A DNA stretch of 63,176 nucleotides, the filler included, from Halorussus marinus (GTDB lineage: Archaea > Halobacteriota > Halobacteria > Halobacteriales > Haladaptataceae), in the NCBI RefSeq assembly GCF_004765795.1. It is 4 parts of 4 records of this genome, joined end to end, with 100 filler letters (N's around TTAATTAATTAA, not from the genome) between each part and the next. Parts side by side here need not be neighbours in the genome. Positions count along the whole stretch, not along the records: positions 27,703 to 49,205 come from NZ_SBIV01000016.1; 3 more parts are not named here. One strand, written 5' to 3'. Positions 8,692-53,446 of the stretch are shown piece by piece. Position 1 is the stretch's first letter. Each line of letters opens with the position of its first letter. Made by a program: the position numbers and the translations under genes. The notes under the pieces were generated by a model that searched no databases, had not been told where the DNA came from, and saw nothing but the letters and a program-made list of their open reading frames with translations.

Positions 8692-9096
8692 TCAATCAGA
8701 TGTTGTTTCCGACGTCTCTGCTGTCGATACCGTTGCGCGGGTCTTCCTTCGAACGAAGCCTACCCAGACAAGTGCACCAACGAGACACAGGATACCAGCG
8801 ATCGCAATCGATTGACCGCGGATTGTCGTCCCGGTCTGGTTCTGTGTGATCAGCAAGATACCGATGCCGAAGAGGACGAATCCTTGAACACCTGCTGCTT
8901 TCGCTGGTTCAGTAATATACTCCGCCTCTGTGAGAATGCCAGCAACAGATCCGACGAACAACAACAGTCCCGCAACAGAGACAGGACGAAGGCCGAGAAC
9001 GACACCGACCTCCGAGAGAGCAAATCCAATAGCGACAAAGAGTGGCCATGGACTCGCTCCCGTGAAGGTTGAATCCGTGTCTTCGGAATCGCTCAT
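8692..9096 (-). CDS. Membrane protein resembling haloarchaeal cox-cluster proteins
   Basis: ASPWPLFVAIGFALSEVG motif; four hydrophobic helices. Confidence 0.7.
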   Translation of the reverse strand: MSDSEDTDSTFTGASPWPLFVAIGFALSEVGVVLGLRPVSVAGLLLFVGSVAGILTEAEYITEPAKAAGVQGFVLFGIGILLITQNQTGTTIRGQSIAIAGILCLVGALVWVGFVRRKTRATVSTAETSETTSD

Positions 9097-30954: not shown

Positions 30955-33750
30955 ATGACAGACCACGTAATTGCCGACTATATCTCCCCAAGCGACGAAA
31001 TCACCACTGAAGACGGTGATATCAGTTCGTCCGGACTGCTCGACGAGGTCAATCTGTACAACCTCTACGACGACCGCGAATCACCCGAGCAAGACGCCGA
31101 ACGTATCCTTGAGATCACGTACCCAACCGACACCCTCACTAGGATCATCCAAAATACCGCTCGCACTCTCCACGGTGAGGACGAATTTTCCGAGGGCGGG
31201 CAGATCATCGGCGGCGGGTACGGGAGCGGGAAAAGCCACATTGAGCTAGTCATATACCACCTGTTCAATTCGCCCGGACTCGGCCAGAAATGGCTTGACC
31301 AGCAAGGCATCGATGTGAGCCTTCCAGACGAAACGAGAACCGCCGCCCTTCAGATGTTCAATCTGGACAAGGAATACAATCTCCTCTCCGAAGCTGTCGG
31401 AGACTACCTTGGAATCGAGGAGTGGGAAGGCGACACCCGACTCCCAACCGTCCATCAAATCCGGGACACACTCGAAGGAACCCCCACGCTCGTTCTGCTG
31501 GACGAATTCGAGCGCTGGTTCGGGATGAACGACCGTTCAGAGTACCAGGAGGACAATAAGGCTTTCCTGCAAAATCTGCTCGAAGCCGCTGGTCGAGACG
31601 ATACGCAACTCAGCGTGTTCCTCTCCCTCCTCTACGAGGACGAAGACATCCAAGCAGTCGCCCAACGCACAAACCCATTCACCTACGATCTATCCTCACG
31701 GCGGGACGAGAAAATCGACTTCCTCCTCCACCGACTCATCGGCTCCGTAGACGACCCCACAGGCGTCGCTGATCTCGCCAAAGAATACACCGACGTCTAC
31801 CGGCAAAACGATCAAATCCAGCTTGAGGACTACCAGCACTTCCAGGATCGCATCGAACGGTACTACCCGTTCCATCCAGTCACGCTGGACCTGCTGATGG
31901 AGAAATACTCCGAACAACGCATCAGTTCTGATGCCCGCGGCCTCCTCCGATTCCTCACCGAAATCCTCGCAGACAACTACTCAAAGGTAGACCTCATCCT
32001 GACTGGCGACGTCGATGTCTTCGACTATGCTGACCGGTTCCAGTACATCGACAACGAACTCGTCGGGAAATACATCAACGACTACCATCGGCTCCAAAAC
32101 TCGGACGAATCGTTCGACGAATTTATTGAAGAACTCACCAACATCGTCCTGCTGCACAGTCTCGCCCGGGCAGGCGAGGAAGGAGCGAACAAACGCCAGA
32201 TGCTGATGGGAACGATGCGCAAAGGCATCAACGCCCATCGTATTATCCAGACGTTCACCGAGAACGTCTACGGTCACGCCTGGCACATCCATCGCATCAA
32301 CGGCGAATACGCGTTCGACGTAGACGAGAACCCAGCGGCCCGCATCGAAAAGAAAGCCGAAGATATCCACAAGCACGACGCGATTCACCGCATCGAGTCC
32401 CTCGTCCGAGACAACCTCTTCGACAACCGCAACAACGTCTACATCCTCGATCCGGTGAACACCGAGCAAGACATCCCGGATAACAAGGCGCTGAAGATCG
32501 TCGTGATGCTGAACGCCAAGCAGAATTACAACGACGAATTCGAGGCGCTGACGACCGGCCAAGAACGTGAATTCCACAATACGCTCGCTCTGGTCACGCC
32601 CGAAAAACGCTCCAGCATCGACTCGAACACGGGCATCATCGAACTAGCTCGAAAAGTCGTTGCTGGGGAACAACTTGACCGAGAAGAGGAAGTCCTCCCG
32701 GAGGGATTCGAGGAAATCCACGAGCAGAACAAGAAAAACCTCCGTGATCGGGTCAGCGACAAGTTCGGGACCGTTCATCGTCCGACAGGCCGTGGTCTAT
32801 ACCCGGAAGACCTCCCAAGTGGCGACCACGTCGATTACTACGACGCCACGGTTAGTATCATCGAACCGGACTACAGTCACCTGAAATCCGAGGTCGAAGA
32901 CGCCATCGAAGACGCGGGCGCGGGCGGTATACAGTATGAGCACCTCCGAAACGATTTCTACCGGAACACCGAGTACCCGACACTCACCAGCGACGACGAA
33001 CTGGAGGACGCTCTGGATGACTTGTGCCGGGAGGGGGCCATCAAGGCCGGGAACTACTTCGAAGAACGGCTACCCAATATCGGGAACGACACGAACCTCG
33101 TCCACGAGAAATACATCGAAGAAGACGACGATGACGATGATGAGACTGCCGAGATAACTATCGATACGACGGGGACAACTGAGACTGACGACGGCTCAGA
33201 TGGTGACAGCGACGGTGAATCCCAATCGACAACTGACGCAGGGACGACCAGTAGCGGAGGGGTTCTCGAATGTCCGCAGTGTGGCCGAGAATTAGATGGG
33301 AATACCTGCGAGTGCGGCTTCGAATTTGACTCAACAGACGTGAAGGAAGGCCGGGTGACGGTCGAGGGCGCCACGACTGAGGAAATCCTTGATGAGTTCG
33401 GACTGGACGACGAGCCGTCTGGGCCGAAAACACAGTCCGTTCCGATTATGGGCACGTTGGAAGCGGATAACAAGCCCGACATGATCGACATGCTGGAGCG
33501 GAAAATCGGGATGGAGTGGGACATCCACTCCGCCACAATCACCGTTGAGGGAACACTGACAGCAGACGACCTCGAACACTACGGGATTTCAGCTGATGCC
33601 CTCGATGAGAAGATTTCAGTCGATGAAACTCTCGAAATCGAGCCTGACGAACCGCTCTCCAGGCAGTCGTTCCTGAGCCTCATCTGGGATCTGAACGTCC
33701 CCGAGAACGCATCACTCGACGTCAGCATGCAGGTGGACAAGAATGAGTAA
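30955..33750 (+). CDS. DUF499/BrxC-like AAA+ ATPase
   Basis: Walker A GGYGSGKSH, Walker B VLLDEFE, YYPFHP, RGLLRFL; acidic linker and CPQC..CEC ribbon near the C-terminus. Confidence 0.85.
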   Translation: MTDHVIADYISPSDEITTEDGDISSSGLLDEVNLYNLYDDRESPEQDAERILEITYPTDTLTRIIQNTARTLHGEDEFSEGGQIIGGGYGSGKSHIELVIYHLFNSPGLGQKWLDQQGIDVSLPDETRTAALQMFNLDKEYNLLSEAVGDYLGIEEWEGDTRLPTVHQIRDTLEGTPTLVLLDEFERWFGMNDRSEYQEDNKAFLQNLLEAAGRDDTQLSVFLSLLYEDEDIQAVAQRTNPFTYDLSSRRDEKIDFLLHRLIGSVDDPTGVADLAKEYTDVYRQNDQIQLEDYQHFQDRIERYYPFHPVTLDLLMEKYSEQRISSDARGLLRFLTEILADNYSKVDLILTGDVDVFDYADRFQYIDNELVGKYINDYHRLQNSDESFDEFIEELTNIVLLHSLARAGEEGANKRQMLMGTMRKGINAHRIIQTFTENVYGHAWHIHRINGEYAFDVDENPAARIEKKAEDIHKHDAIHRIESLVRDNLFDNRNNVYILDPVNTEQDIPDNKALKIVVMLNAKQNYNDEFEALTTGQEREFHNTLALVTPEKRSSIDSNTGIIELARKVVAGEQLDREEEVLPEGFEEIHEQNKKNLRDRVSDKFGTVHRPTGRGLYPEDLPSGDHVDYYDATVSIIEPDYSHLKSEVEDAIEDAGAGGIQYEHLRNDFYRNTEYPTLTSDDELEDALDDLCREGAIKAGNYFEERLPNIGNDTNLVHEKYIEEDDDDDDETAEITIDTTGTTETDDGSDGDSDGESQSTTDAGTTSSGGVLECPQCGRELDGNTCECGFEFDSTDVKEGRVTVEGATTEEILDEFGLDDEPSGPKTQSVPIMGTLEADNKPDMIDMLERKIGMEWDIHSATITVEGTLTADDLEHYGISADALDEKISVDETLEIEPDEPLSRQSFLSLIWDLNVPENASLDVSMQVDKNE

Positions 33751-34681
33751 CGCGCTCTACGGTACGTCCGAACTCGAAACCCTGCTTACGGGAGACTCTG
33801 TCTTCGATGGAGTCTTCGAAACACTTCGGCATATCTGGGGTGATCCAGCCGCGCTCAGTGACCGGGAACTAGCGCATTCTGAGTACCGGACACGCCTACT
33901 TGAACGCGAGCTTGCGGAACTGTATCCACCCCTGTACGACGAGTTGATCGCGGCAACTGGTGACCACCCCCTCACACAGATTGAGGACGGTACCGGCGTC
34001 ATCATGGACGCGTTGAGCCTTCGTGAAGGATTCCGGCTTGAACAAGAGCTGGCTGACGAATACGATTGGGAGGTTTCCCTTTCGTGGGCACCAATCGAAC
34101 GGTTGCCGAGCGAAACTCAGTTCATCACTCGGGAATGGTTTGATGCACACAGTCCATCGGCTGTGTCACGTGACGACTTCCGGTTCATTGGCGAAATGGA
34201 AGTCCCGAAGCTTCCCGGAACATCGCCGGAATACGTGTGGACTCGGCATCCGGACCAGCGTCTCGAAGGCGCACTGAAGGGGAACTACTCGAACGAAGAA
34301 GTTGGGGACATCTACGAGGACGTGAAGACTCTCCTCACGGACATCATTCACGAGAGTATCCACGATGAGTTCTTGGTCACGAGTGATCACGGGTATGTGA
34401 ACCACCTGGGCAATTCACCTTATTCGGTGACTGACGAACAGGAAGAGGCGTTGTCGAGTAAGTTCAGCGGTCGGTTCACGGAAGTTGGAAACGGCCAGGC
34501 GTACCAGCTGCTCGAGGACGCTGACATTCTTAAGCGAGTAGGTGACTACTACGTGATAAGAGGTCACTACACGTGGACGAAACGCGGTGCGACGAAGAAA
34601 ATCATGCACGGTGGGCTCAGTCTTCCCGAGTGCATGACGCCCGTCCTTCGAATCAATACGACCCCGACTGGAGGTGCCTAA
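33743..34681 (+). CDS. PglZ-like alkaline-phosphatase-superfamily protein
   Basis: IMDALS, LPSET, VTSDHGY, HGGLSLPE motifs. Confidence 0.85.
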   Translation: MSNALYGTSELETLLTGDSVFDGVFETLRHIWGDPAALSDRELAHSEYRTRLLERELAELYPPLYDELIAATGDHPLTQIEDGTGVIMDALSLREGFRLEQELADEYDWEVSLSWAPIERLPSETQFITREWFDAHSPSAVSRDDFRFIGEMEVPKLPGTSPEYVWTRHPDQRLEGALKGNYSNEEVGDIYEDVKTLLTDIIHESIHDEFLVTSDHGYVNHLGNSPYSVTDEQEEALSSKFSGRFTEVGNGQAYQLLEDADILKRVGDYYVIRGHYTWTKRGATKKIMHGGLSLPECMTPVLRINTTPTGGA

Positions 34682-34684
34682 ATC

Positions 34685-37333
34685 ATGCAAACTTGGGATA
34701 AGCTACCCCTCGAGCTGATGGACGAACTGGCCGAGAAAGAGACCTATCGACGCGACGTCTACCGCCCACTCTACTCACTGCACAAGTGGTGGGCGCGGCG
34801 TCCCGGCTCCACGTTCCGATGTCTTGGTCTTGCAGCTCTGACAGACGACACGATCAGCAAAGACGACATCCTCACAGAGCGAAATTCCGGCACACACGAC
34901 GGGTTGTATCTTGACTCGTACCACGAGCAGTACAACCCGAACGACAAGCACATCGACCGCGATGTCACTGTCATGGATCCATTTGCAGGCGGAGGGACGA
35001 CGCTAGCGGAGTTGAATCGACTTGGTGCTGACGTCGTCGGGTACGAACTCAACCCGGTTGCCTGGTGGACCGAGAAAAAGATGATGGACGATGTGAATCT
35101 GGAGGTCCTTGAACAGGAATTTGACCGGATTCTCGAAGAAACACGCGACGAACTCGGAGACTACTACACCACCATCGACCCCGACACTGGCCAGGAGTGC
35201 GAAGCCCTCTACTACTTCCAGTCACAGCGCATCCCCTGCCTCACCTGCGAGGAAGAAGTCCAACTCTTCCCCCGCTACCAACTCAGCAAAACCAAGAAAA
35301 CCCGCCCCGGCGTCCTCTACTGCCCCAACCAAGCCTGCGACGACCGCATCATCGAACTCGAAAACAGAGACAAAGGCCTCGACGCAGGCACCGAAATCGA
35401 ACTCGAAAACGGGGACACAGCCACCATCTCCGAAGACGGCAACGAAATCTGCCCCACATGCGGCCACGAATTCGACCCGAACAACGGCACCTACGGCCGC
35501 GGCAAGTACACCTGCTCGAACGGCCACAAACACGACGTGAAAGAGACGCTGCAACGCCTCGACGAACGCCCGACGTTTGATCGATTCGCACTCCAGTACC
35601 GCGATCCCCGAGGCAACAAACGCATCAAAGAATTCGATGAGCACGACGCCGAACGCGTTGCCAAAGCCAAGGAACGCCTCCAGGAACTCTACGACGGCCT
35701 CCGCATCCCTGAACAAGCCATCCCCGACGGGGACAAGACCGGTGCACTCCTCAACTACAACTACGACCAGTTCAATGAACTGTTCACCGACCGCCACCTC
35801 CTCACGTTCGGCCTCCTGTTCAAGGAAGCCTGGGAAGTCCGACACAAGGACTTCGACGACGCAGACCCCCAGAACATCGCCGAATTTCTCGTCACCTCCG
35901 TCTCGAACACGCTCATCCGCGCCGGCAACCTCTGCGTCTGGGACGTGTACACCGCAAAGAGCGATCAAGTCTTCAAACGCCACGCCTACATCCCCCGCGC
36001 TCAACCCGTCGAATCCAACCCACTCAACCACGACGAAAACGTCGCCTCCCTGAACAACGCCTTCCGCAAAGTCTACCGCGCCAAGGAATTCTGCGAACGC
36101 CCCTTCGAGAAAGTCAAAAACCGAAAGAACGGCGATGTCGAACAGTTCTACGTAGAGTCTGAATCAATCACGGAGGACCGAGTTAGCAGCCTCAATTGCA
36201 AAACCTCCGAGCGGATGGAGGAAAACGACGAGTCGGTCGATTTCGTCATCACGGACCCGCCGTACTACGACAACGTCCAGTACTCGGAGCTTTCGGACTA
36301 CTTCTACGTCTGGCTTCGGGAAGTACTCAAGGACGAGTACGAGGAATTCGAACCAGAACTCGTCCCGAAGGCACGGGAGATCGTCGCCAATTCGAGTGCC
36401 AACAAAGGCGAGGACTTCTTTGTTGAGTCGCTAACGAACGTGTTTAGTGAAGCACACCGTGTCCTCAAACAGGACGGCGAACTGATCTTCACCTATCACC
36501 ACAACGAAAACGAAGCCTGGTCGGTGATCTTGGAGGCAATCATCGAGTCTGGGTTCACTGTTGCCGGTGCGTACCCCGTCCAGTCTGAGATGCCGAACAA
36601 TCCCCATATCTCAGATCTCGACAACGCAGAATACGACATCCTCATCTTCGCCAACAAAGAGAACACTGACGAAGACATCACGCTCGAAGAACTGCGACAA
36701 GACCTCTATTTCGAGTTGCAGGATATGATTGCGGAAGAGCGGGAGCGGCACGAGAACCTCTCCACAGCGGACCTCGGTGTGATTCTTCGTGGGAAGTCGA
36801 TGTACTACTACTCGAAGCACTATCCAAACGTCTACACCGATGGTGAGCAGGTCGGGATCGAGGAGGTCCTTGATACGGTAGACTCGGTGATCGAACAGGC
36901 GCTGGAGGGAACGGTGAACCTTCCGCAGAGTATCGATCCGATCACGCAGGCGTACGCGGCGTTCTGCCAGCGCGGCAGCGAGGACTATGACGATCTGAAC
37001 AAGCACTTGCTGGCGAAGAACCTGAACGTGAGCGACCTTGAAGACGAGAAACTCGTCAAAGGCCCACGCAACAAAAAGGAGCCAATGACAGCTGATGAGC
37101 GCATCAACTACATTGAAGGGAAGCTCAACAGCAACGGTGACAACGGCCACGACTTACTGGATATCGACCGCGTGCAGTACCTCTACCACCTGTACAAGAC
37201 AGACCAGAACACGACGGAGTACCTGAAAGAGTGGAAGTCGGACGATCTCGAAGACTTGGCAGAGTTCATGGCCGACGTGAGTGGTGACGAACGGTACGAG
37301 AACGTGATGGACATGACACTCCAACAATTCTAA
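34685..37333 (+). CDS. DUF1156-like amino-DNA methyltransferase with Zn ribbons
   Basis: HKWWARR, SAM motif DPFAGGG, catalytic TDPPYYD, Cys clusters (CLTC, CPNQAC, CPTC). Confidence 0.92.
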   Translation: MQTWDKLPLELMDELAEKETYRRDVYRPLYSLHKWWARRPGSTFRCLGLAALTDDTISKDDILTERNSGTHDGLYLDSYHEQYNPNDKHIDRDVTVMDPFAGGGTTLAELNRLGADVVGYELNPVAWWTEKKMMDDVNLEVLEQEFDRILEETRDELGDYYTTIDPDTGQECEALYYFQSQRIPCLTCEEEVQLFPRYQLSKTKKTRPGVLYCPNQACDDRIIELENRDKGLDAGTEIELENGDTATISEDGNEICPTCGHEFDPNNGTYGRGKYTCSNGHKHDVKETLQRLDERPTFDRFALQYRDPRGNKRIKEFDEHDAERVAKAKERLQELYDGLRIPEQAIPDGDKTGALLNYNYDQFNELFTDRHLLTFGLLFKEAWEVRHKDFDDADPQNIAEFLVTSVSNTLIRAGNLCVWDVYTAKSDQVFKRHAYIPRAQPVESNPLNHDENVASLNNAFRKVYRAKEFCERPFEKVKNRKNGDVEQFYVESESITEDRVSSLNCKTSERMEENDESVDFVITDPPYYDNVQYSELSDYFYVWLREVLKDEYEEFEPELVPKAREIVANSSANKGEDFFVESLTNVFSEAHRVLKQDGELIFTYHHNENEAWSVILEAIIESGFTVAGAYPVQSEMPNNPHISDLDNAEYDILIFANKENTDEDITLEELRQDLYFELQDMIAEERERHENLSTADLGVILRGKSMYYYSKHYPNVYTDGEQVGIEEVLDTVDSVIEQALEGTVNLPQSIDPITQAYAAFCQRGSEDYDDLNKHLLAKNLNVSDLEDEKLVKGPRNKKEPMTADERINYIEGKLNSNGDNGHDLLDIDRVQYLYHLYKTDQNTTEYLKEWKSDDLEDLAEFMADVSGDERYENVMDMTLQQF

Positions 37334-37335
37334 CC

Positions 37336-37725
37336 ATGCCACTACGACCCGGCTACAACATCGTGACTGATCCGGTTGCCGAGACAGACTCGTCGCTGGC
37401 AGCGCTTGAGTTCTTCCGTCAAGTCGCTAATGACGGCAACGTGCAGACACCGGTCACGGTGACCGGGCTCGAGGATCTGCTATACAACGTGGTTGAGGAC
37501 GAACGTAGTGATGTGGTGGCTCGACTTCGACAGGTGCTGCGAAGCTCTGAATCACTGGGGTCGATGGATGCTGTGCAATTTCTCGTCGACGGGCAACTCG
37601 TAGACGATGTTGAATTCCGCGTGCGGATCGAGCGTGCTGAAGGCGGCGTGTATCTCGATATTGGACAGCTGTTCGTTGAGGCGCCTCAGCAACTTTCACC
37701 GACGCACGCTGTCGCGCGAAAGTGA
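37336..37725 (+). CDS. Small terminal operon protein, possibly a BrxB/BrxF-like inactive NTPase fold
   Basis: 2 nt after the methylase stop; VTVTGLEDLL resembles a degenerate Walker B strand. Confidence 0.65.
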   Translation: MPLRPGYNIVTDPVAETDSSLAALEFFRQVANDGNVQTPVTVTGLEDLLYNVVEDERSDVVARLRQVLRSSESLGSMDAVQFLVDGQLVDDVEFRVRIERAEGGVYLDIGQLFVEAPQQLSPTHAVARK

Positions 37726-37858: not shown

Positions 37859-40800
37859 TCAGTCCAGCCCTGGCGACGGTTGACTGAGACGATCTCGTTG
37901 GGTTGCTGTTTCTGAAACGTCTTGGAAGCTCGATTGTGCTGTGTCAGGTCCTGGAAGTTGACCGAGACGAACTACGGTGGAATCCGTGGCTGCTGTACCA
38001 GATGGGCCTCTTTCAAGTTTGTCCGAGTCGGCGAATGCACCCCAGAGGAATGGCCACCATCGTCTGAGCCGGTCGTGACCGTCGAAGAGGGCTTTGATGT
38101 CGTCTCCCGGTTGGATACCCTCAAGATACGCTGTCTCGAGGTCGGGTAAGTCGTAGTGGGTGATGAGATGGCACATCACCGCACTAGCGACATCACGGGG
38201 GAACTCAGCGAAGAGTATTCCCGTGTCGGGATCAGGGTCGGCAAAGGGTTCATCCCGATCACTCTGCGGCGTCCACCACGGCTCTAAGTGTGCCTCCCAC
38301 CGGCGACGCCCCTCGATTTCTCGGGGTTCAATGATGTCCCAAGCGGCAAGCTCGTTGATATAGCGGTCGTAGCTACTTTCAGAGATACCTGCGGTATCGA
38401 TGATTTCAGACCGGCCCATCGGATCATCCGCATCAAGCAGGGTTTTGAGGAGCTTCGTCGCTGTTGGTGGAAGGTCGGGTAAGAGTCGTTTCGTGGGGAG
38501 ATTCGACAGTCCGTACGAGATGTCTCGCACGGTGATGAAATCGTAGTTCCGGGAGGATTGAGCAATATGAAGCATTGCTTCGACAACATCGTGAGGACAC
38601 GCTCGATGTGGTCGATCCTCTGTCCCGAGGACACGCAGGAACAGCCGAACAAGTCGCTCGATATCCTGTTTTCCTTCGTGAATATCCTTCTGGTGAGCCA
38701 CCTGGTAGTTCTTCGCTGAAGCGTATTCCTCGACGAGATCACGAATCGCTGAGTAGGAGTTCCCAATCTGGACGGGTATCTCCATTACCGGTGCTGACTC
38801 CTGTCCATTAGCAATCGCGTCACGAATTTCGTTGGTCTCCATTTCAATGGCGCCCTCGATATCATCATAAAGATCGGTCATCGTTGGTCCGGAGAAAACC
38901 CACGATGCGGTCAGATGCATTGTTGAATCAGCATCATCCACCTCGTAGGGAAGACGTCGTTTGAGTTTCTCCGGTCGATCCTCAAGGAGCATCCTATACC
39001 CCGAATGAATCCCGTACACGGACTGTTTCGGGATGGTGTACTGGGCGAAACCGAGAAAGTCGTCGAGACGGCGCTCATCACTGATGAGCATCCCCGTGTC
39101 AGGGACTCGCACGTTGATTGTGACATCCACATCGGCTGCGTAGTAGAGCTGTGTTGCTGAGGCAACCAAGCCGTGCAGATCACGTAGTAACTCAGTCCGG
39201 GCTTCGACGTCGTCACTGTTTGTGAGTTCACCAACTTGTTGCAAACACAAACTGCGAACGGCACCAATACGCTCACGCCAACCATCGTAGTCTTCCTCGT
39301 CCTCGCTGAACCAGCCGATCTGGTGACCCCGACGAATGATTTCTCCAGCTTCTCTATCGAGTTGTTCAACGACTGCATCGTCGATTTCTTCGAACTCGGA
39401 ACCGAGGCGTGATGGTGTGAGAACCTTGCTTAGTGCCTTGTCGCTGAGTAAGGTTCCCGCAATACGTCCCAGGGTAGGGAGGGGGCCGCCCCACTGAGTG
39501 GCTACGAAGAGGTCATCGTCGAAGCAACTGAGATACGATATGCGACCGTCCTCGAAACGCTCGATACGGTCATCGACTAGGGTGACACCACGATCTCGAC
39601 GGCCAGCAAGGTATCGTTGGTGCATTCCCCAGGCATCGAGGACACCAGACGGCCCATCGAGCCATTGAACGTAGTCAGCACCCTCACTAGGATTGCCTGT
39701 CGCAGCTATCCAATCCTCCGCTGTCCCAGGCTGATCCCCCTCCCTCGTGTCCGATCGCGCGGGATACACTGTACTTGCTTGGGGCTGAGGGGTCGGCGTA
39801 AGATGCGTCTCCAGCGTCGATTGGGTCGGATGGATCACCCGGTAGTCCGTGGTGACATGCTGCTCAACTGCTACTTGTCCTAAGCCGGTGAGGGATGCGC
39901 TGTTGTATTGTCCACGACGGTCGATATCCACAAGCCCTAATTCTTCTAGATCGAGGATGTAACGGCCGACAGTCCCTGCCTGCACGTCAATCTCATCATC
40001 CTGCTTGAGATCACGATAGTCCCGAGATCCCTCTATAGGGAGGTTCCCAAGCAGACGGAGTCTCCCCGATTCCTCTGGGAGGTTCTGTATTGCTTCCCAT
40101 GCTTCCCCGAGCTGCTCCGCCGATGGTTGTCCGTCGCCACCCGCTGATTCTACAGAGGAGGTCTCACGGGTTTCAGTAAGACGGAGATGGGAGTCATACC
40201 AGTCTGGATACCGTCGCTCAATCGCGGCGTCTAACGCTGGTGAAATAACCAGGCGGACGTCGAAGGTGGAGCCGAGCACGGCGATAGCTGCAAGTGCTCG
40301 GATACCTGTTCCTCTATCGTCGAGTTTTGACCACAACTCGCCATCAAGGACAAGCGTGATCGGTTGCGGTGCGTCATCGAGCTCATCGTGGAGTCGTACG
40401 GGTCCCTTGGCGAGGGCTTCAAGGCCAGCGTTGAGTGGGCCACGTCCGGTACTGATCGTAGTGAGAGTCTGTTTAAGCGATTTGCACCGCTGCTGGTGAT
40501 ACTCCGAAAGTTCGTCGAGATCATCTTCGTCGACGTCAGAATATTTGACTGCGAACTCGACAAGTGATTCTACGTATTCAACCGCTTCAGCCTCTGCATC
40601 ACTCCAAATATCCGTTGTGGAGCACCATTCTTGATGGTCGAACCCCAGGGTTTCCTCTTGAAGACGGCGATAGACGGTGTTGTATCGTGCGTGCGTGAGG
40701 ACTTCTGGGTCTTCTTGCCGGATGAATTTTCGAACCGATTGAATACTCCGTGGAAGTAGTTCCTCAAGAAGGTCAGGTATCCATTCTGTTACCCGTGGAG

Positions 40801-40888
40801 TGACCTCGGTGATGGTAAGTCCAGCAGTAGAGAGGTTCCCTCCTGGAACGATCTTCCGGATTCCTTGGTGTCGATTAGGCGTGTGCAT
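37859..40888 (-). CDS. repH: Haloarchaeal plasmid replication protein RepH
   Basis: 1009-aa acidic protein with two winged-helix-like segments; size and sequence recalled as Halobacterium pNRC100-type RepH; par genes nearby. Confidence 0.85.
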   Translation of the reverse strand: MHTPNRHQGIRKIVPGGNLSTAGLTITEVTPRVTEWIPDLLEELLPRSIQSVRKFIRQEDPEVLTHARYNTVYRRLQEETLGFDHQEWCSTTDIWSDAEAEAVEYVESLVEFAVKYSDVDEDDLDELSEYHQQRCKSLKQTLTTISTGRGPLNAGLEALAKGPVRLHDELDDAPQPITLVLDGELWSKLDDRGTGIRALAAIAVLGSTFDVRLVISPALDAAIERRYPDWYDSHLRLTETRETSSVESAGGDGQPSAEQLGEAWEAIQNLPEESGRLRLLGNLPIEGSRDYRDLKQDDEIDVQAGTVGRYILDLEELGLVDIDRRGQYNSASLTGLGQVAVEQHVTTDYRVIHPTQSTLETHLTPTPQPQASTVYPARSDTREGDQPGTAEDWIAATGNPSEGADYVQWLDGPSGVLDAWGMHQRYLAGRRDRGVTLVDDRIERFEDGRISYLSCFDDDLFVATQWGGPLPTLGRIAGTLLSDKALSKVLTPSRLGSEFEEIDDAVVEQLDREAGEIIRRGHQIGWFSEDEEDYDGWRERIGAVRSLCLQQVGELTNSDDVEARTELLRDLHGLVASATQLYYAADVDVTINVRVPDTGMLISDERRLDDFLGFAQYTIPKQSVYGIHSGYRMLLEDRPEKLKRRLPYEVDDADSTMHLTASWVFSGPTMTDLYDDIEGAIEMETNEIRDAIANGQESAPVMEIPVQIGNSYSAIRDLVEEYASAKNYQVAHQKDIHEGKQDIERLVRLFLRVLGTEDRPHRACPHDVVEAMLHIAQSSRNYDFITVRDISYGLSNLPTKRLLPDLPPTATKLLKTLLDADDPMGRSEIIDTAGISESSYDRYINELAAWDIIEPREIEGRRRWEAHLEPWWTPQSDRDEPFADPDPDTGILFAEFPRDVASAVMCHLITHYDLPDLETAYLEGIQPGDDIKALFDGHDRLRRWWPFLWGAFADSDKLERGPSGTAATDSTVVRLGQLPGPDTAQSSFQDVSETATQRDRLSQPSPGLD

Positions 40889-41392: not shown

Positions 41393-41511
41393 GTAACAGT
41401 CGGTGTCTGACGATCCCCAAAAGATAGGCGTACATCAAGGGCTCATCTCAGAGTTTGTTTCTATCTTGACCTGCGATAGAAACGCGAAATCACATATATG
41501 GGATTTGATTA

Positions 41512-42581
41512 GAGGGTGTCATAGAACGATTACCACACCAAAGAGCAGGGTGAACGCTGAGGTGGAATGAGTTCAGCGACCCTGCAAGATGATCCTTCGG
41601 TAGAGTCGTTCTTCAATGTCGCGGAGACCGAGACGTTAGCGTTGTTTGAGCACCTTTCCTTCGAGTTTCTTGAAGAGTTCGACGTGTTCGCCCCGGCGCA
41701 GACGGGGCGAACACGAGAGCACGAGCCACCAGAGATGATGTGTGGGTTCCTCCACTGCTGCTACAAGGACATCTACGGGATTCGTCCCGTTGAACGAGAG
41801 CTTCGGAACACGGTCGTTTGGCTGAGCTGTGGCTTCGATCGACCGCCGTCGAGAGACGCGGTCGATCGCTTTCTCACCGTCCTCGAACACGTCGTCGACG
41901 AAGTCTTTGACCAACTCGTCGAGCAGGCCGCCCGCCGCGGCCTGCTCGACTTGACCTACTCCATCGATTCAACCGACGTGAGGGCGATGCCTGCCGATCA
42001 AGACGCGTCGAAGTGCTACGATCCAACCGACGACGAGTACTACTACGGCTACGGCTGTACGATCGTCTCGACCGGGCAAAAGATCCCAATTGCAGCGGAA
42101 TTCACAGAGAGTAGACAAGCGCCAGAGGAGACGGCGATGCGCGTCACGCGTGACGCGCTCGCCGTCGCCACGCCGATCTGGATGGTCGGTGACAGCGCCT
42201 ACGACACGCTCGACTGGCACGACCACCTGCTGGCCGCAGGGGGTCGTGCCAGTCGCTCCGTACAACGCACGAAACACCGACGACCCGCTCGATATCGAGT
42301 ACAGGGTCGAAGACCGCATCGAACAACACAGCGAGGACGTACAGCTGAAGCAATCGACGCTGGACGAGACGTACAACCGCCGTACGGGAGTCGAGCGAAC
42401 CAACGAATCAGTGAAGGACTGCGGCCTCGGGCGAACGCACGCCCGAGGCCGCGTCCACGCACGAGCGCAGGTGTTTCTTGCTCTGTGCCTTCGCCTCGTC
42501 GTCGCAATTACCAACTACGAACGCGGAGACAATCCGGGAAGCACGATCATCACGGTGTGAGAAGAGTTCTATGACACCCTC
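41512..42581 (+). mobile_element. ISH11-like insertion sequence, 1070 bp
   Basis: Perfect 16-bp TIR GAGGGTGTCATAGAAC; 8-bp target duplication TTTGATTA (41504-41511, 42582-42589). Confidence 0.93.
41567..42560 (+). pseudogene. DDE transposase with a +1 frameshift
   Basis: IDST and GDSAYD in frame 1; YNRRTGVERTN in a second frame; extra G in the GGGGG run at about 42239-42243. Confidence 0.85.
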
Positions 42582-42802
42582 TTTGATTATTCTAGAATCG
42601 GATAGATCCATATTCATTATCAATTATATTACCATTAGCAAATTCGCTGTTCACACTTGCCCACAGAGTAGAGAATTTTGAGGAGGAAGAACCTACCTGA
42701 ACCTATGAAAAGCCTGATTTCGCGGGTTTCAGAATTCTCTTCTATTCATAGGAAAGTTTAATTAGTGTTCGCATAAAATGGTCAACTGAGAAGAAATAAT
42801 AT

Positions 42803-43534
42803 ATGGAACGAGATGTTGAACCCCTCTCCCGTCAAGCGATGAGTCTATTTACTGATGCTGCGGAGTCGTTCGACGATGATGTGGTAGCGCTGACCGCGCT
42901 CATTGCACTCTTTACAGGTGTCCGAAACTATACCATCGGTCATATCCATGCAGATTGGTTTAATCATGTAAATGGGGCACTGTGGATGAAGGTGCCAACA
43001 AAAACCCCTTGCACAAAGACGGCTGATGACACGATCTGTGGCGACTGTAACCAAAACAAGCGAGGAGGTCGAGACTTCGCTCCGAAGAGCGATGCTGGCG
43101 GAGGAAGACGGCTCAAAATCCCAGAATCGTGGCACAACAAACACACCGATACTGAATCTCAACAGGACCTCTCACTTCGTTCGATGATTGAGCATCATTT
43201 TAAATTAGAGGAAGAGAGTCACGGCAACATGCTACTGGGAGGCAAAGGGCTGTCGAAGCGGACAGTTAACAAGTACGTCAAGGCCGTTGCCGAGGAGGCA
43301 GATATTGGATTCTTTAGAAATAATGGATACGTTCAACATCGTGATTTGGGTCGGGTGCCCGATCTGTTCCCTCACGATCTGCGTGCCACCTACTGCGTGC
43401 AGTTAGCCCGTAACGACGCGAATCCATGGAAAATGTGCAAGCGAACAGGCCACGCTGACATCGAATCGTTGAAACCCTACATCAAGATTGCGTCACAGGA
43501 GATTGAGGGCGACTTTGAAAACAGTTTCATTTGA
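42803..43534 (+). CDS. Tyrosine recombinase, catalytic domain only
   Basis: FTGVR, PK, PHDLRATY, GHADIESLKPY: full R-K-H-R-H-Y set; Cys-containing insertion (C...CGDC). Confidence 0.9.
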   Translation: MERDVEPLSRQAMSLFTDAAESFDDDVVALTALIALFTGVRNYTIGHIHADWFNHVNGALWMKVPTKTPCTKTADDTICGDCNQNKRGGRDFAPKSDAGGGRRLKIPESWHNKHTDTESQQDLSLRSMIEHHFKLEEESHGNMLLGGKGLSKRTVNKYVKAVAEEADIGFFRNNGYVQHRDLGRVPDLFPHDLRATYCVQLARNDANPWKMCKRTGHADIESLKPYIKIASQEIEGDFENSFI

Positions 43535-43537
43535 GAT

Positions 43538-45070
43538 ATGCCCTATTCAGAGATTGAGCTTTTAGAAGAGTTCAATCGGCTTGCCGAAGAGCTGGGTCAC
43601 ACGCCGACGGTTTCTGATATGGATGAACATGGAAAGATTACTAGCACACCGTTCTATGACCACTTCGACTCTTGGGACGATCTGGTTGAAAAATCAGATT
43701 TGCCACCAACTCGACAAAGCGGACAGACACGACCATCAAAAGACCACCTCATAGAGGATTTCAAACGGGTGAGTGAGGAGCTCAACCGAACCCCAAAGAC
43801 GACAGATATTGCTGAACACGGAAAGTATAGCTTCCAACAATATTATTACGCATTCAACGACTGGAATGATGTCGCAGATGCCGCAGGGCTGCCGTCGACC
43901 TCTCGTGGTATCCCTGACGAAGACCTTCTTGATGATCTCACTAGGTTAGCAGATGATCTCGGTCATACACCAAAACAAGACGAAGTGATTAAAGATGGAA
44001 AATACTCAGTCAAACCATATAGGGCCCGATGGGGGACGTTCAACGAGGCATTAGTCGCGGCGGGACTGAAACCGAATCGCGAAGTCTTCATCAGCCGTCG
44101 GAGGCTGCTCAATGAAATCCATCGGTTAGCAGACGAGTATGGAGAAGCCCCACCCAAGAGCGCACTCGCCGAAAGCGGAGAGTTTTCCGAGGCTCCGTAC
44201 CGGAGAATCTGGGGGAGTTGGAACGAAGCAGTCCGCAGTGCGGGGTATAGCCCGACGCCACCATGCCGTCCTATTGACAACAAAAAGCTCCTCAACGAGA
44301 TCGACCGATTCGTCGAAGAGAATAATAAAGTACCAACGTATAATGAAATGGATGAAATTGGTGAGTTCAGCGCCACAGCGTATGGGAGCAACTTTCCCTC
44401 GTGGAATATTGCATTGATTCGAGCAGGATACTATAGCCGTTACAGGCGGCCACTATCTCCAGAAGCCATCCACAGATTCCACCGGAAGATAAAGCTACTC
44501 CCAGCAACTGAACAGTCGTTGGTTCTCTTGGCCATGTTCACCGGACTTCCATGGCTGGTTGAACAACATTTCGAATGCAGTTGGGTTCGAGAGTTAGGAG
44601 AAGAATATATCATCCATGTCCCAGACGAGTTAGCTCCAGACAGGGGCCAGCGCTGGGAATTCCGACTCCCGAATAGATGGAACAATCCCTACACTAAAGA
44701 AAGAGAAAAAACTGGGCTTAAGCAGGGTATACAGTGGCTTCTCAATTCCTCATTCCCTACAGCAGCTACATCCACCCGCCAGATTCTCCTCGATAGAGTT
44801 CAGGAAGTAGCCGAACAGGCTGAACTAAGCGATTTCCGCAGGCTCGTGCATATGGCCGGTGATCGTACTTTACGGGTCCGTCCGACTGATTTGCGCGAAA
44901 CCCACGGCGTACTACTAGCTCACAATGGAAACACCCCCGAGTTCATCAGACAACGGCTTGGGATGGACTCTGTTAAGCAAACTCGACGCTTTTTCGAATA
45001 TCTCAATGCAGATCATATCGATTATAACAGGAATACGGCCTCGTCTCACGAATGGGACAGTATCGATTAG
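43538..45070 (+). CDS. Five homing-endonuclease-associated helical repeats fused to a degenerate tyrosine-recombinase domain
   Basis: Five ~60-aa repeats (L...L..TP......G.YS...Y...FGSWN.A...AG); C-terminus aligns with the upstream integrase but reads FTGLP, PTDLRETH, LGM...RRF. Confidence 0.85.
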   Translation: MPYSEIELLEEFNRLAEELGHTPTVSDMDEHGKITSTPFYDHFDSWDDLVEKSDLPPTRQSGQTRPSKDHLIEDFKRVSEELNRTPKTTDIAEHGKYSFQQYYYAFNDWNDVADAAGLPSTSRGIPDEDLLDDLTRLADDLGHTPKQDEVIKDGKYSVKPYRARWGTFNEALVAAGLKPNREVFISRRRLLNEIHRLADEYGEAPPKSALAESGEFSEAPYRRIWGSWNEAVRSAGYSPTPPCRPIDNKKLLNEIDRFVEENNKVPTYNEMDEIGEFSATAYGSNFPSWNIALIRAGYYSRYRRPLSPEAIHRFHRKIKLLPATEQSLVLLAMFTGLPWLVEQHFECSWVRELGEEYIIHVPDELAPDRGQRWEFRLPNRWNNPYTKEREKTGLKQGIQWLLNSSFPTAATSTRQILLDRVQEVAEQAELSDFRRLVHMAGDRTLRVRPTDLRETHGVLLAHNGNTPEFIRQRLGMDSVKQTRRFFEYLNADHIDYNRNTASSHEWDSID

Positions 45071-45341
45071 TCTGCTTGCATCCCCGCCACGCGCCATTTC
45101 ATTCGCGCCCACACTCCTGCCCTCCTCGTCGGTCAGCGAGACGGTCAATCGGCTCATTATTTACTTCTTCACCGCTTGTGTGAGCCTACGAATACTCAGA
45201 TAGCCTGTTGCACGGTTTCAAAATTAGCTCAGTCTCATCAAACATCAGCCGCTTGTGAATACTGATCTTTCTTTGTGATAGCTCGTTGCACGTTCAAAAT
45301 TAATTCGCCAGAGGGAGCGAGAACGGTGTCTGACGGAGATT

Positions 45342-45417: not shown

Positions 45418-46218
45418 ATGAGGATCGACGTCGGAATGCAGAAAGGAGGAGTTGGGAAAACGACGACAAGCATCAATCTCGCCGGTGCGCTTGCCGACAG
45501 AGGACACGATGTCTTGGCTGTTGATGCTGATCCACAGGGTGGACTCACACTCAAACTCGGCCACCGCGAGCAGTATCGGGAGGGCGAGTACGCGCTCTAT
45601 GACGTCCTCTCTGAGATGGGGCAGCTCACCCTTGACGACCTCGATGAACTAGTCGTCCAAGGAGCTGAGTTCGATATAGTCCCATCCCATTTACGCAACT
45701 TCCGGCTTGAGAAGCACCTGTACTCCGAAGCCCGTGGAGTTGAGGCCCTCAAACTCGCGCTCGACCGCCTCACAGTAGACTACGACTACGTTGTGATCGA
45801 TTCCCCGCCGAACCTCGGACCACTCGCTGACGGGGCGCTGCTTGCCGCTGAGAACGTTCTATTCCCGAGCCACGCGAACACGATTGCGAAAGACTCTCTC
45901 GAAATCCTGTTTGATGAGATCGACACCTTGGAGGACAAGTTCGATGACGTCAACATCTCTACCGTCGCAGCTGTCCTGAACGAGGTCGGCCGTGATGGCG
46001 TAAGTAGTGAAATGCAGGATTGGTTCGTCGGCACGTTCGGCGAGGATTACGTCTTCGAGATTCCGGACTGGGCAGTGGTTGAGCACGCCATTGAATACCG
46101 AACTTCGGTGTTCGCGTATAATCCGGATGATGCAGGTTACTCGTGGGATGCAGAAAAAGCAGAAGCACTGCGTGACAAATACAGTGCAATCGCCACACAC
46201 GTGGAGGATCTCTCATGA
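45418..46218 (+). CDS. parA: ParA/Soj partition ATPase
   Basis: QKGGVGKTT, DADPQG, YDYVVIDSPP; GGAGGTG RBS. Confidence 0.95.
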   Translation: MRIDVGMQKGGVGKTTTSINLAGALADRGHDVLAVDADPQGGLTLKLGHREQYREGEYALYDVLSEMGQLTLDDLDELVVQGAEFDIVPSHLRNFRLEKHLYSEARGVEALKLALDRLTVDYDYVVIDSPPNLGPLADGALLAAENVLFPSHANTIAKDSLEILFDEIDTLEDKFDDVNISTVAAVLNEVGRDGVSSEMQDWFVGTFGEDYVFEIPDWAVVEHAIEYRTSVFAYNPDDAGYSWDAEKAEALRDKYSAIATHVEDLS

Positions 46219-46607
46219 GCGATCCAAAAGACGAACTCGGGCAACGATTCGACGACCGACGGCCAGACAGCGACGACAAAGAGGAGAACATGAGCCAGTC
46301 AGATAACACGAATAATACGAGTGAGTCGAATAACTCGAATAATACAGGTAATTCGGGTAGTACGAGTAATAAGCCAGGACCTGACCCGAATCCAACCTCG
46401 ACTCGGAATCGACGTCAAGTACCAATGTATCTCCCCGACGAAAGGGCAGATCGTCTGGACTCACTTTACGAGCAGTTAGACGGACGCTCAAAAGTCGCTG
46501 GAGAAGGGGGAATTGAGAAGCACGCAGACTTCATGGAAGCGCTCGTAGACTTCGCCATCGAGCACGAAGATGAATTAGCGGACCGACTTGGCATCAAGAA
46601 AGAATAG
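46215..46607 (+). CDS. ParA partner, probable DNA-binding adaptor (RHH-like C-terminus)
   Basis: ATGA-coupled; disordered N/S/T linker, then RQVPMYLP..IEKHADFMEAL. Confidence 0.8.
   Translation: MSDPKDELGQRFDDRRPDSDDKEENMSQSDNTNNTSESNNSNNTGNSGSTSNKPGPDPNPTSTRNRRQVPMYLPDERADRLDSLYEQLDGRSKVAGEGGIEKHADFMEALVDFAIEHEDELADRLGIKKE
46302..46373 (+). repeat. Eight tandem 9-bp units (consensus RRTAAYWCG) inside the partner gene
   Basis: GATAACACG AATAATACG AGTGAGTCG AATAACTCG AATAATACA GGTAATTCG GGTAGTACG AGTAATAAG. Confidence 0.8.
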
Positions 46608-49423: not shown

Positions 49424-50120
49424 GGCACTGTTCAGATAAGGATGAAGGATGAGGCGGTTCGATTTGCTAGTGATCCATGCCAGAAATCGACCGCCTCAAC
49501 GGAGCTAGCGACTCGATCGAGTTAGAGTTTATGGAGCGAGAAGCGACACCGGAGCCGCTGATGAAGCTCAGTATCCACCTGCATGCGGCCGGATTATCAC
49601 TCTCGGATACTGTTTCGGTCTTAGAACAATTCGGTGTCAAACGGTGTCGATCCACTATCCACAATTGGGTGCAGAAAGCCGATCTACAGCCAACTGACGG
49701 CAAAAACCCGAATCACGTTGTCGTCGATGAAACCGTGATTCAACTCAACGATCAACGCTACTGGCTGTACGCCGCCGTCGATCCTCAAACCAACGAATTT
49801 CTCCACGCCAAGCTCTATCCGACACGAACTATCGTTGTGACGAAGCAGTTTCTCACCGAATTACAAGAGAAACACCGCGTCGCCGACGCGGTGTTTCTCG
49901 TCGATGGCGCGCCGTGGTTACAGGCCGCACTCTTCGAGCAAAACCTCCGATTTCAGTATGTCACACATGGAAATCGGAATAGCGTCGAACGTGTCTTCAA
50001 AGAGCTAAAACGCCGAACGAAACAGTTCGCCAATCATTTTCGCCACGCGACTCACCGCTCTGCCGAAAATTGGTTGCAGACCTTCGCCTTCGCATGGAAT
50101 CAGCTAATCTGAACAATGCC
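49424..50120 (+). mobile_element. IS6-family insertion sequence, 697 bp
   Basis: TIRs GGCACTGTTCAGATAAG / GGCATTGTTCAGATTAG; 8-bp target duplication ACCCCATA (49416-49423, 50121-50128). Confidence 0.95.
49477..50112 (+). CDS. IS6-family transposase
   Basis: VDET, WLYAAVD, FLVDGA, RNSVERVFKELKRRT. Confidence 0.95.
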   Translation: MPEIDRLNGASDSIELEFMEREATPEPLMKLSIHLHAAGLSLSDTVSVLEQFGVKRCRSTIHNWVQKADLQPTDGKNPNHVVVDETVIQLNDQRYWLYAAVDPQTNEFLHAKLYPTRTIVVTKQFLTELQEKHRVADAVFLVDGAPWLQAALFEQNLRFQYVTHGNRNSVERVFKELKRRTKQFANHFRHATHRSAENWLQTFAFAWNQLI

Positions 50121-52380: not shown

Positions 52381-53446
52381 CTGACGGCTAAAAATTCATG
52401 GAGCTTGAGGAACAAGGATCAGTATGGCGACGTTGGAGAACGTCTCTGTTGAAGACCTCCGCCAGATCTTGGCGGAGGTCGATGATGCCGACGCGACAAA
52501 GCGGCTTATGGCCGCGATCACCTACAAAGAAATGGACGATCTCACGCAAGCGGAAGCTGCCGAACTCTACGGATTTTCTAGCAGTTGGGCCTCAAAATGG
52601 TTCAACCGACTCGAACGGCTCGCCGACGAGCCGTTCGAGGAGGTCGTCTACGACAAACCACGAGAGGGCAGGCCGTCCGAGCTCTCCGAACAAGAGCACG
52701 AGCAGTTCGTTGAAGCACTCCACGACTCACCCGAGGAAGTCGGATATGACGCGCCCGCGTGGTCTGTTCCACTCGCGCGTCACTATCTCGCTGAAGAATT
52801 CGACGTTGAGTACTGTGAACGTCACGTCCGACGATTGATGTCCGAGGCCGGGCTGTCCTGGAAGACAGCCCGGCCGGAGTTTCACAAATCCGACGAGAGA
52901 GCTCAAGAAGCCTGGCAAGACGGCTTCAAAAAAAGCGCGACAACCTGGACGACGAATACACGATCCTGACCATCGATCAGACGCGTCAGGTTCTCTCGAC
53001 GCTGATCTATGCCTGGTTCCCGGAAGGAGAGCGCCCGTCACTGCCGGTGACGGGCGCGTGGGACAGCATCAAGTTGCTCGGTGCAGTCAGCGATTCCGGA
53101 GAAACGTTCTTTCTGCCCTGTGACGAGAACTTCAACAGCGACACGACGATTCGCTTGCTAGACGCTCTCCAAACCGAATTCGGCGAGAAAATCTGCGTCG
53201 TCTTGGACAACGCGTCGTATTTCACGGCCAACGCAGTGCAGAAATTCGTCGAACACACGCCGATCGAACTGTGTTACCTTCCGCGGGGTTCACCGGAGCT
53301 GAACCCCGCGGAAGAGTGCTGGCGACAGCTTGATCAAGAGCTTGGCAACCGTCTGTTCGACACCCTCGACGATCTTCGTGATGCTGCGCTCTCTGCGCTC
53401 GATCGAATCGAAGTTCCAGATATCTTCACGTACTTATGTCCGTGAG
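52381..53446 (+). mobile_element. IS630-family insertion sequence
   Basis: Imperfect TIRs CTGACGG / CCGTGAG flanked by TA on both sides. Confidence 0.88.
52424..53445 (+). CDS. IS630 transposase in two frames joined by a -1 frameshift
   Basis: HTH ORF (GRP, W, LSWK..RP), A7 slippery run at 52928-52934, then IDQ, LDNASYF, SPELNPAEECW in the -1 frame. Confidence 0.9.

Follow-up and report, generated by a model that had tools for sequence, protein, structure and literature searches.

The concept of an inactive recombinase-fold subunit is already known from bacteria: GinC lacks the first catalytic arginine and is essential for integration and excision (PMC5385486), and Tfp of the SE elements has a recombinase fold without the catalytic motif (PMC10214605). 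At the IR1-IR2-DR1-DR2 site of the TnpI/IRS system of Tn4430, accessory motif copies impose resolution selectivity (PMC2847244). Int1 of phiCh1 is a 224-aa, catalytic-domain-only recombinase (R48 to Y207; PMC5861418, Table 1), and Int1 of phiCh1, phiH1 and ChaoS9 inverts tail-fibre genes (PMC6471424). Here we describe two adjacent genes, A and B, in a 63,176-nucleotide stretch (filler included) of DNA from the archaeon Halorussus marinus (RefSeq assembly GCF_004765795.1; hereafter the window). A encodes a catalytic-domain-only tyrosine recombinase, and B a catalytically dead recombinase fold preceded by an array of five repeats. We propose that the two make up a plasmid multimer-resolution system in which A cuts and B serves as a non-catalytic accessory subunit, a reading to which we give an even chance.

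The GInt and SE operons, like the present one, include a dead recombinase-fold subunit. They comprise, however, three recombinase-fold genes (two active and the dead one) and a small helper, whereas every locus mapped here has two genes; they are integrative and bacterial, no GInts having been found in archaea by their authors (PMC5385486), whereas this pair is archaeal; and the available parts of those reports mention no repeat array, whereas here a bare catalytic subunit is accompanied by 1–9 repeats. TnpI/IRS resembles the locus in combining an inverted core (11 of 16 loci here) with accessory copies of the same motif (10 of 15), but TnpI fulfils both roles alone within a Tn3-family transposon, whereas we find a dead paralog, a 9-bp spacer between ACT ends and, among the scanned neighbours of the pairs, no Tn3-family transposase. 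XerC/XerD at cer likewise consists of two paralogous recombinases, resolves plasmid dimers and has one subunit exchange strands (PMC5357621); both of its subunits are competent, possess core-binding domains and work with host accessory proteins, whereas B is permanently dead and A has no core-binding domain. Int1 shares with A this absence and a similar cysteine insertion after strand 2, the match between them being weak (24%, E 0.04). In our tree it joins three solo relatives at 100/100, with deeper links to the A clade that are weak (84/74, 85/68) and midpoint-rooted only; unlike A, it is adjoined by no dead paralog, and A and B are flanked by repH and parA rather than by a tail-fibre segment. 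MrpR of SPbeta (PDB 8A0A; PMC10516654) has a recombinase fold without catalysis and binds DNA, but it is a prophage repressor with a core-binding domain and no repeat array, and the available text describes no adjacent active twin.

SNJ2-type integrases have an N-terminal SAM-like domain, Gly/Ala at Glu/Asp-I and Ala/Val at His/Trp-III (PMC5861418, PMC8371274). An SNJ2-type identity was rejected for A, which has no SAM family and carries T44 and H217 at the diagnostic positions, and no tRNA gene was found in the window or in 35 loci. The repeats of B are those of PF18780 (HNH_repeat) proteins, here fused to a dead recombinase; the sole paper found to name that family does so in a modelling table (PMC8078820). 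PMC8371274 lists families with only PF00589 and no PF18780 fusion, and the pair is not described in the portions seen of PMC8138268, PMC13532300 and PMC8078820. The sequence-only reading on which this analysis builds had not recognised the architecture as a described one. A full-text literature search, with supplements outside its scope (Table S1 of PMC8371274 may list these proteins), indeed returned no description of the combination; the inactive-subunit concept, in contrast, is the known one of GinC and Tfp. The conserved architecture is thus apparently undescribed in the literature searched, and the upstream site reported below is new here.

A bare catalytic recombinase paired with a dead, repeat-bearing paralog

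The window joins four contigs, separated by N runs, of a 37-contig draft assembly, and the pair sits on one of them (C16, NZ_SBIV01000016.1; window 27703-49205, 21,503 bp; Table 1). A scores 31.4 bits against the Pfam family Phage_integrase (cut-off 27.1), and the Pfam scan detected no SAM/core-binding family in it. Its AlphaFold2 model (predicted local distance difference test score, pLDDT, 87.8) was matched by Foldseek to recombinase catalytic domains, with E values of 3e-6 for 3NKH and 1.7e-5 for XerA. Since all six catalytic residues are present, A is predicted to be an active recombinase. In the paired A proteins the R, H, R, H and Y positions are occupied in 15 of 15 and the lysine aligns in 13 of 15; the H47/C70/C79/C82 insertion, which may bind metal, is invariant in all 15. 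FimB and FimE are similar in size to the catalytic-only Int1 of phiCh1.

The five PF18780 units of B (E 2.8e-81; residues 3-57, 67-120, 125-179, 185-239 and 246-300) are mutually 25-40% identical. The C-terminal domain is homologous to the family of A (hhalign probability 99.7, E 2.6e-26, 186 columns). Foldseek matched the AlphaFold2 model of B (pLDDT 79.6) to XerH and lambda Int, and structural comparison of the domain by VIA gave XerA (Z 15.6, root-mean-square deviation 2.7 Å over 161 residues) and XerH (Z 14.2), with Phi3T SroF (by PDB title; Z 10.6) and MrpR 8A0A (Z 9.6, below the active recombinases) also among the matches. The catalytic columns of B read P338, a gap where the lysine loop is deleted, T450, R453, M476 and F485, so that Arg-I, Lys, His-II, His-III and Tyr are lost and only Arg-II is kept. 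Across 31 B proteins, Arg-I, Lys, His-II and His/Trp-III are each present in 0/31, an aligned Tyr in 8/31 and Arg-II in 23/31; G, P, W and L at structural positions persist in 28-31 of the 31. This anatomy (a catalytically complete gene without an N-terminal DNA-binding domain, followed 3 nt later by five diverged repeats and a domain with R>P, H>T, H>M and Y>F changes) had been read correctly from the sequence; what had been overlooked was the loss of the lysine loop and of the cysteine insertion in B, and the DNA site upstream.

By VIA, a single B repeat resembles TetR DNA-binding domains (Z 5-6) and part of SauUSI (Z 7.0), scores that the tool rates as middling. A comparison of 137 repeats shows a conserved scaffold, with both helices of the turn motif among the most variable positions (entropy 3.3-3.85 bits); the repeats contain an S-x-x-T-Y-x-x-R-F pattern that we take to recall TetR recognition helices. 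The repeats may bind DNA; the array in the window is acidic (net -19 over 300 aa) and the window's B domain neutral. The last repeat is distinct, with W, V and R enriched at three positions, which suggests that it packs against the dead domain, and Atlas structure alignments to full-length recombinases start inside it, at residue 264. The same genome encodes three more PF18780 proteins, with five repeats and an HNH-like tail judged by eye (C7, 58512-59729), six repeats and an unknown domain (C5, 137966-139591), and three repeats alone (C2, 218499-219050).

Pairing of the two genes is conserved. Among 401 genomes of the class, seven besides that of H. marinus match A at E<1e-20; five of them have a repeat-bearing B directly behind A and two (G321, G384) do not. 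Searches of three families (257, 152 and 232 genomes, overlapping the 401) contributed two G436 loci, which have 3 and 6 repeats, and a single G552 match, the latter outside the locus set. Two named records (L053, L054) contain an identical 4-repeat pair, and pNRC100, pNRC200 and one further H. salinarum plasmid a 9-repeat pair with both genes annotated as hypothetical. At metagenome loci of close A relatives the repeat gene follows directly in 9 of 9, with the dead domain within the contig in 7 of 9. A profile search returned 153 proteins, and PF18780 was found in 16 of the 30 scanned, which were chosen by length from 150 listed. The B-domain profile matched 26/401 genomes at 1e-5; all six matches below 1e-60 are B directly behind A, and the others have E>1e-13 and were not all inspected. 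B without A is excluded only within the 401 genomes. The family escaped word-based searches, in which the B domain matched itself alone and A no genome locus; scans of viral contigs gave 0 loci and 1 weak locus. The gap between A and B is -1 to 6 nt across pairs, and repeat number, whose variation in homologous pairs had been singled out as worth surveying, ranges from 1 to 9 across 31 B partners.

The ratio of nonsynonymous to synonymous substitution rates (dN/dS) for the B domain is 0.09, 0.17, 0.20, 0.28, 0.31, 0.42 and 0.50 in the seven estimable pairs, three of ten being saturated; for A it is 0.04-0.19, so B evolves faster, and values with dS above 2 are rough. Similarities of A and of the B domain correlate over 14 pairs (Mantel rho 0.50, p 0.001, related loci not being independent), and a tree of 55 rows groups the repeat-type B domains in a single clade (100/99) that partly mirrors the A clade. 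Two of the three outcomes that would have counted against the sequence-only reading thus turned out the other way, the C-terminus of B being a recombinase fold under selection and the genes co-occurring. Its proposal of a heteromeric recombinase with an inactive subunit gains from fold, purifying selection, co-occurrence and co-divergence, and a partnership of A and B is likely.

Related arrangements were also seen further afield. Nine distant loci (L040, L041, L042, L043, L045, L047, L071, L073, L074) hold pairs of an active and a degenerate recombinase without repeats, the product of the second gene ending in a winged helix or in a cysteine-rich, HGGxSTG-like domain; the L042 partner retains Arg-I and Tyr and may be active. 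With these repeat-less dead or degenerate twins of distant A genes, the combination of an active bare recombinase and an inactive partner extends beyond the repeat-bearing pairs. L035:3735-4445 and L036:6649-7359 encode solo catalytic-only recombinases that have the cysteine insertion, each with an inverted repeat ~140 nt upstream (P 0.02 and 0.08); they are natural controls for the need of a partner. In G394, G190, G164, G163, G072, G015, G175 and G270, mostly on contig C1, catalytic-only recombinase-like frames of 181-286 aa match both profiles weakly.

A predicted upstream DNA site in a plasmid replication–partition slot

A motif-free scan detected an inverted repeat 130-165 nt ahead of the A start in most loci. 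Scored as ACT-N9-AGT, the repeat reached P<=0.02 ahead of A in 11 of 16 loci. With a spacer of 9, nine or more of the 11 arm positions pair in 10/16 loci, against 0-1/16 at even spacers, and in 6/16 loci the arms are paired at 10-11 of 11. Downstream of it lies a third copy of the locus's own arm (P<0.05 in 10 of 15 loci), which matches the cognate arm at 8.9/11 positions and non-cognate arms at 7.2/11. Distances from third arm to spacer fall into three clusters (64, 74-75 and 83-86 bp) that differ by roughly a helical turn; with so few of them, this phasing is suggestive only, and so is a fourth arm copy. The core occurs once in the draft assembly of 37 contigs at up to 8/31 mismatches. In none of 16 repeat-less or solo loci was ACT-N9-AGT significant (best P 0.06), and some of these carry other inverted repeats. 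Arm similarity correlates with similarity of A (rho 0.39, p 0.004) better than with that of the B domain (0.17, p 0.08) or of the last repeat (0.18, p 0.12). These symmetric arms that track A suggest that A cuts on both of them and that B is accessory.

The gene order on C16 is a repH-like gene on the minus strand, an insertion sequence, A, B, parA and a gene for a ribbon-helix-helix (RHH)-like protein. The contig has a GC content of 54%, against 67-69% in the six largest contigs of the genome. The region is a haloarchaeal plasmid backbone, with 95% identity to pNRC100 over repH. Homology between the window and pNRC100 stops at 41417 and resumes from 45327; the cassettes in between have A genes only 34% identical. 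Neither pHSAL2 nor any of ten sibling regions carries A or B. Three siblings (L085, L086, L090) keep repH and parA around a recombinase with an N-terminal domain, a call that is clear for L086 and weaker for L085 and L090; in L089 such a recombinase adjoins repH, and the remaining siblings hold unrelated genes. The sequence of pHSAL2 tracks pNRC100 as far as the fifth base of the predicted spacer (position 8806) and then joins pNRC100 57459 through four shared bases (microhomology), coordinates that match Table 8 of PMC7002104. Neighbours of the pairs include repH, MCM and ParA. A single site per replicon, accessory arms, the lack of a tRNA target, replication and partition neighbours and the interchange with a conventional recombinase together point to multimer resolution.

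In the mechanism we envisage, A would bind the two inverted arms and, once two directly repeated sites meet in a plasmid dimer, cleave and swap strands across the 9-bp spacer. B, produced in step with A from one operon and unable to cut, would join the complex through its dead domain and specialised last repeat, either next to A or on the extra arm copy; its array would grip or wrap nearby DNA so that resolution is favoured. Binding of B beside the promoter may also repress the operon. Prediction of a complex of A with the B domain scored 0.00 twice, which is uninformative either way.

Several observations weigh against this proposal. The left arm in the window is degenerate (4/11 paired, P 0.28 alone), and four other loci of the 16 fall short of significance with it (L058, P 0.05; L059, L039 and L067); moreover, ACT-N9-AGT was defined on the same loci it scored, several of them close kin. 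No DNA feature scales with repeat number. The far side of the pHSAL2 junction is a small gene beside another integrase with no arm there, so the junction is one suggestive event. Some pairs (L033, L066) adjoin defence genes rather than replication genes. Solo G321-type genes (G321, G384) have no B, lying outside the A clade in the tree, and because solo relatives have their own inverted repeat, B may be dispensable; together with the bare Int1 of phiCh1, they indicate that A need not require a partner.

Table 1. Positions of the A–B locus, its upstream site and its flanks in the window
Feature	Position	Strand	Basis and remarks
repH plasmid replication gene, divergent from the pair; left slot flank	37859..40888	-	94.9% DNA identity to pNRC100 repH region; RepH annotated there
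12-bp direct repeat, left copy	41401..41412	+	Flanking-repeat P 0.02 at window locus
Insertion sequence, passenger upstream of the site	41511..42582	+	17-bp terminal inverted repeats, frameshifted transposase
Putative recombination core, ACT-N9-AGT (left arm 42647-42657, spacer 42658-42666, right arm 42667-42677)	42647..42677		Same position and geometry as relatives
Third arm copy, putative accessory/operator site	42733..42743	+	10/11 match to right arm, shuffle P 0.004; 75 bp from spacer start
BRE/TATA-like promoter element just past third arm	42752..42764	+	Read by eye
A (gene 1), catalytic-domain-only tyrosine recombinase	42803..43534	+	243 aa; R41 K95 H191 R194 H217 Y226; H47/C70/C79/C82 insertion
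B (gene 2)	43538-45070	+	510 aa; 3 nt after A
B N-terminal array, five PF18780 four-helix repeats, TetR-like helix-turn-helix	43544..44437	+	Family search, model
Individual repeats	43544-43708, 43736-43897, 43910-44074, 44090-44254, 44273-44437	+	PF18780
B C-terminal domain, catalytically dead tyrosine recombinase fold	44438..45070	+	Structure match, profile alignment, residue columns
12-bp direct repeat, right copy; start of conserved parA upstream region; right slot edge	45324..45335	+	Sequence comparison
parA and small RHH-like partner; right slot flank	45418..46607	+	Family search of window proteins

Alternative roles for B and the cassette

That B is a transcriptional regulator only, in the manner of MrpR, is an alternative we hold to be unlikely, though it is the likeliest of the rivals. 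B would then bind arm copies round the promoter, and perhaps other plasmid sites via its repeats, to set the level of A, which would recombine alone. The third arm abuts the promoter-like element, the repeats match TetR DNA-binding domains, and the fold matches of B include SroF and MrpR, which lost recombinase activity and represses (PMC10516654). B nevertheless retains the whole fold, with Arg-II in 23 of 31 proteins, and lies so close behind A in one operon as is expected for fixed-ratio subunits. Solo A-like genes exist, and phiCh1 Int1 appears to recombine by itself; on the other side, A and B co-diverge, and the dead recombinase GinC is essential for recombination (PMC5385486).

Somewhat less probable still is that the site and the two genes constitute a small GInt/SE-like integrative element that inserts into plasmid backbones, with B as an obligatory dead subunit whose repeats help to pick the target. 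Backbones that are 95-96% identical do carry, in one and the same slot, two cassettes with such divergent A genes, and left arms are often degenerate, as expected of hybrid sites. A 12-bp direct repeat flanks the window cassette, but of 13 loci the window's own is the only one where such repeats are significant at P<0.05, and they were rejected as general attachment (att) sites; the right copy belongs to the conserved parA upstream region, present also where the slot carries other genes. Brine metagenome contigs break at 45327, with a depth of ~250 for the backbone and ~5 for the cassette in two runs, yet the empty-site comparison proposed in the sequence-only reading, once run, found no empty site: no empty slot junction turned up in the searches (12 of 14 matches of one search were non-haloarchaeal records, left unexamined), the assembly has no second copy of the core, and no joint at the core was among those listed for contigs of the sequencing runs.

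We regard as doubtful an obligate two-subunit recombinase in which the expandable helix-turn-helix array of B is a modular DNA reader for a second or accessory site. In it, each repeat would read a few bases via a hypervariable recognition helix, gain, loss and swap of repeats would reprogram A, and the pair would be a natural TALE-like archaeal recombinase. For the crossover site, programmable reading by the array, and with it the earlier suggestion that the repeats make recognition of that site retargetable, is unsupported. Arm similarity follows A and not repeat number (rho -0.05); L066 and L067, whose A proteins are 81% identical and which have 3 and 6 repeats, share a common arm; and a single-repeat B was found with a complete site. 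Repeat number was likewise rejected as a measure of spacing or a code for the site, having no relation to core-to-third-arm spacing or to arm sequence. L066 and L067 are the two paralogous cassettes of G436 (C52, C55); each lies by a similar 430-aa unknown gene, and the A gene of L067 is intact.

B might instead sit inside the core as an arm-binding subunit of an A–B heterotetramer, A making one exchange pair and host enzymes or replication finishing the Holliday junction, as for XerC at ColE1 cer; this we consider very unlikely. At cer, XerC alone exchanges strands and a host resolvase finishes (PMC5357621), the DNA-facing Arg-II is kept in most B proteins, and the last repeat is specialised and contains residue 264, where structure alignments to full-length recombinases begin. 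The arms, however, are near-perfect inverted copies where they pair best, which fits one protein on both, and they track A better than the B domain. Finally, that B is a decaying duplicate or chance fusion without a recombination role is hardly credible and largely refuted: for all its faster evolution than A and the fusion of PF18780 repeats to unrelated domains elsewhere in the genome, dN/dS is below 1 in every estimable pair, and the 31 intact B proteins share one architecture and invariant structural residues, their domains forming a single clade.

Neighbouring genes and significance

The insertion sequence upstream of the site has an apparent 6-bp target duplication, and the reading frame of its transposase is shifted by a single additional base at 42239, in comparison with many environmental copies. 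In the slot of the siblings, L085:7661-9100 and L090:2922-4379 encode recombinase-like proteins of 479-485 aa with a zinc-ribbon insertion that Pfam barely detects; both are adjoined by an RHH-like gene, and L085 has in addition a 184-aa unknown protein resembling L086 and L089 genes. A short motif just upstream of parA promoters in several plasmids (the two 12-bp copies of Table 1; L085:7076, L090:4580, L131, L133) is found also at slot junctions, coincides with contig breaks in brine metagenomes and is perhaps a partition-protein operator. Farther to the left, at 30955-37725, a four-gene operon encodes a DUF499/HmaC-like ATPase, a short PglZ-like protein, a DUF1156/HmaB-like methylase and a 129-aa unknown protein; it is possibly a divergent BREX/Hma-like defence system, every match lying below the curated equivalog cut-offs. 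On the next contig, 49477-50112 and 52424-53445 hold transposase-like genes, IS6-like and split IS630-like, as judged by eye.

The analysis gives a testable identity and a predicted site to two 'hypothetical' genes, VNG_RS13750 and VNG_RS13745, neighbours of the pNRC100/pNRC200 replication gene in Halobacterium salinarum NRC-1, a model archaeon. If the proposed role is true, the pair would be a candidate dimer-resolution system for haloarchaeal plasmids, in which a recombinase makes its own accessory factor from a dead duplicate. With 1-9 units on a constant partner, the family also offers the best natural series for PF18780 function, and, should the repeats prove to be modular readers, it would provide a small retargetable recombinase scaffold.

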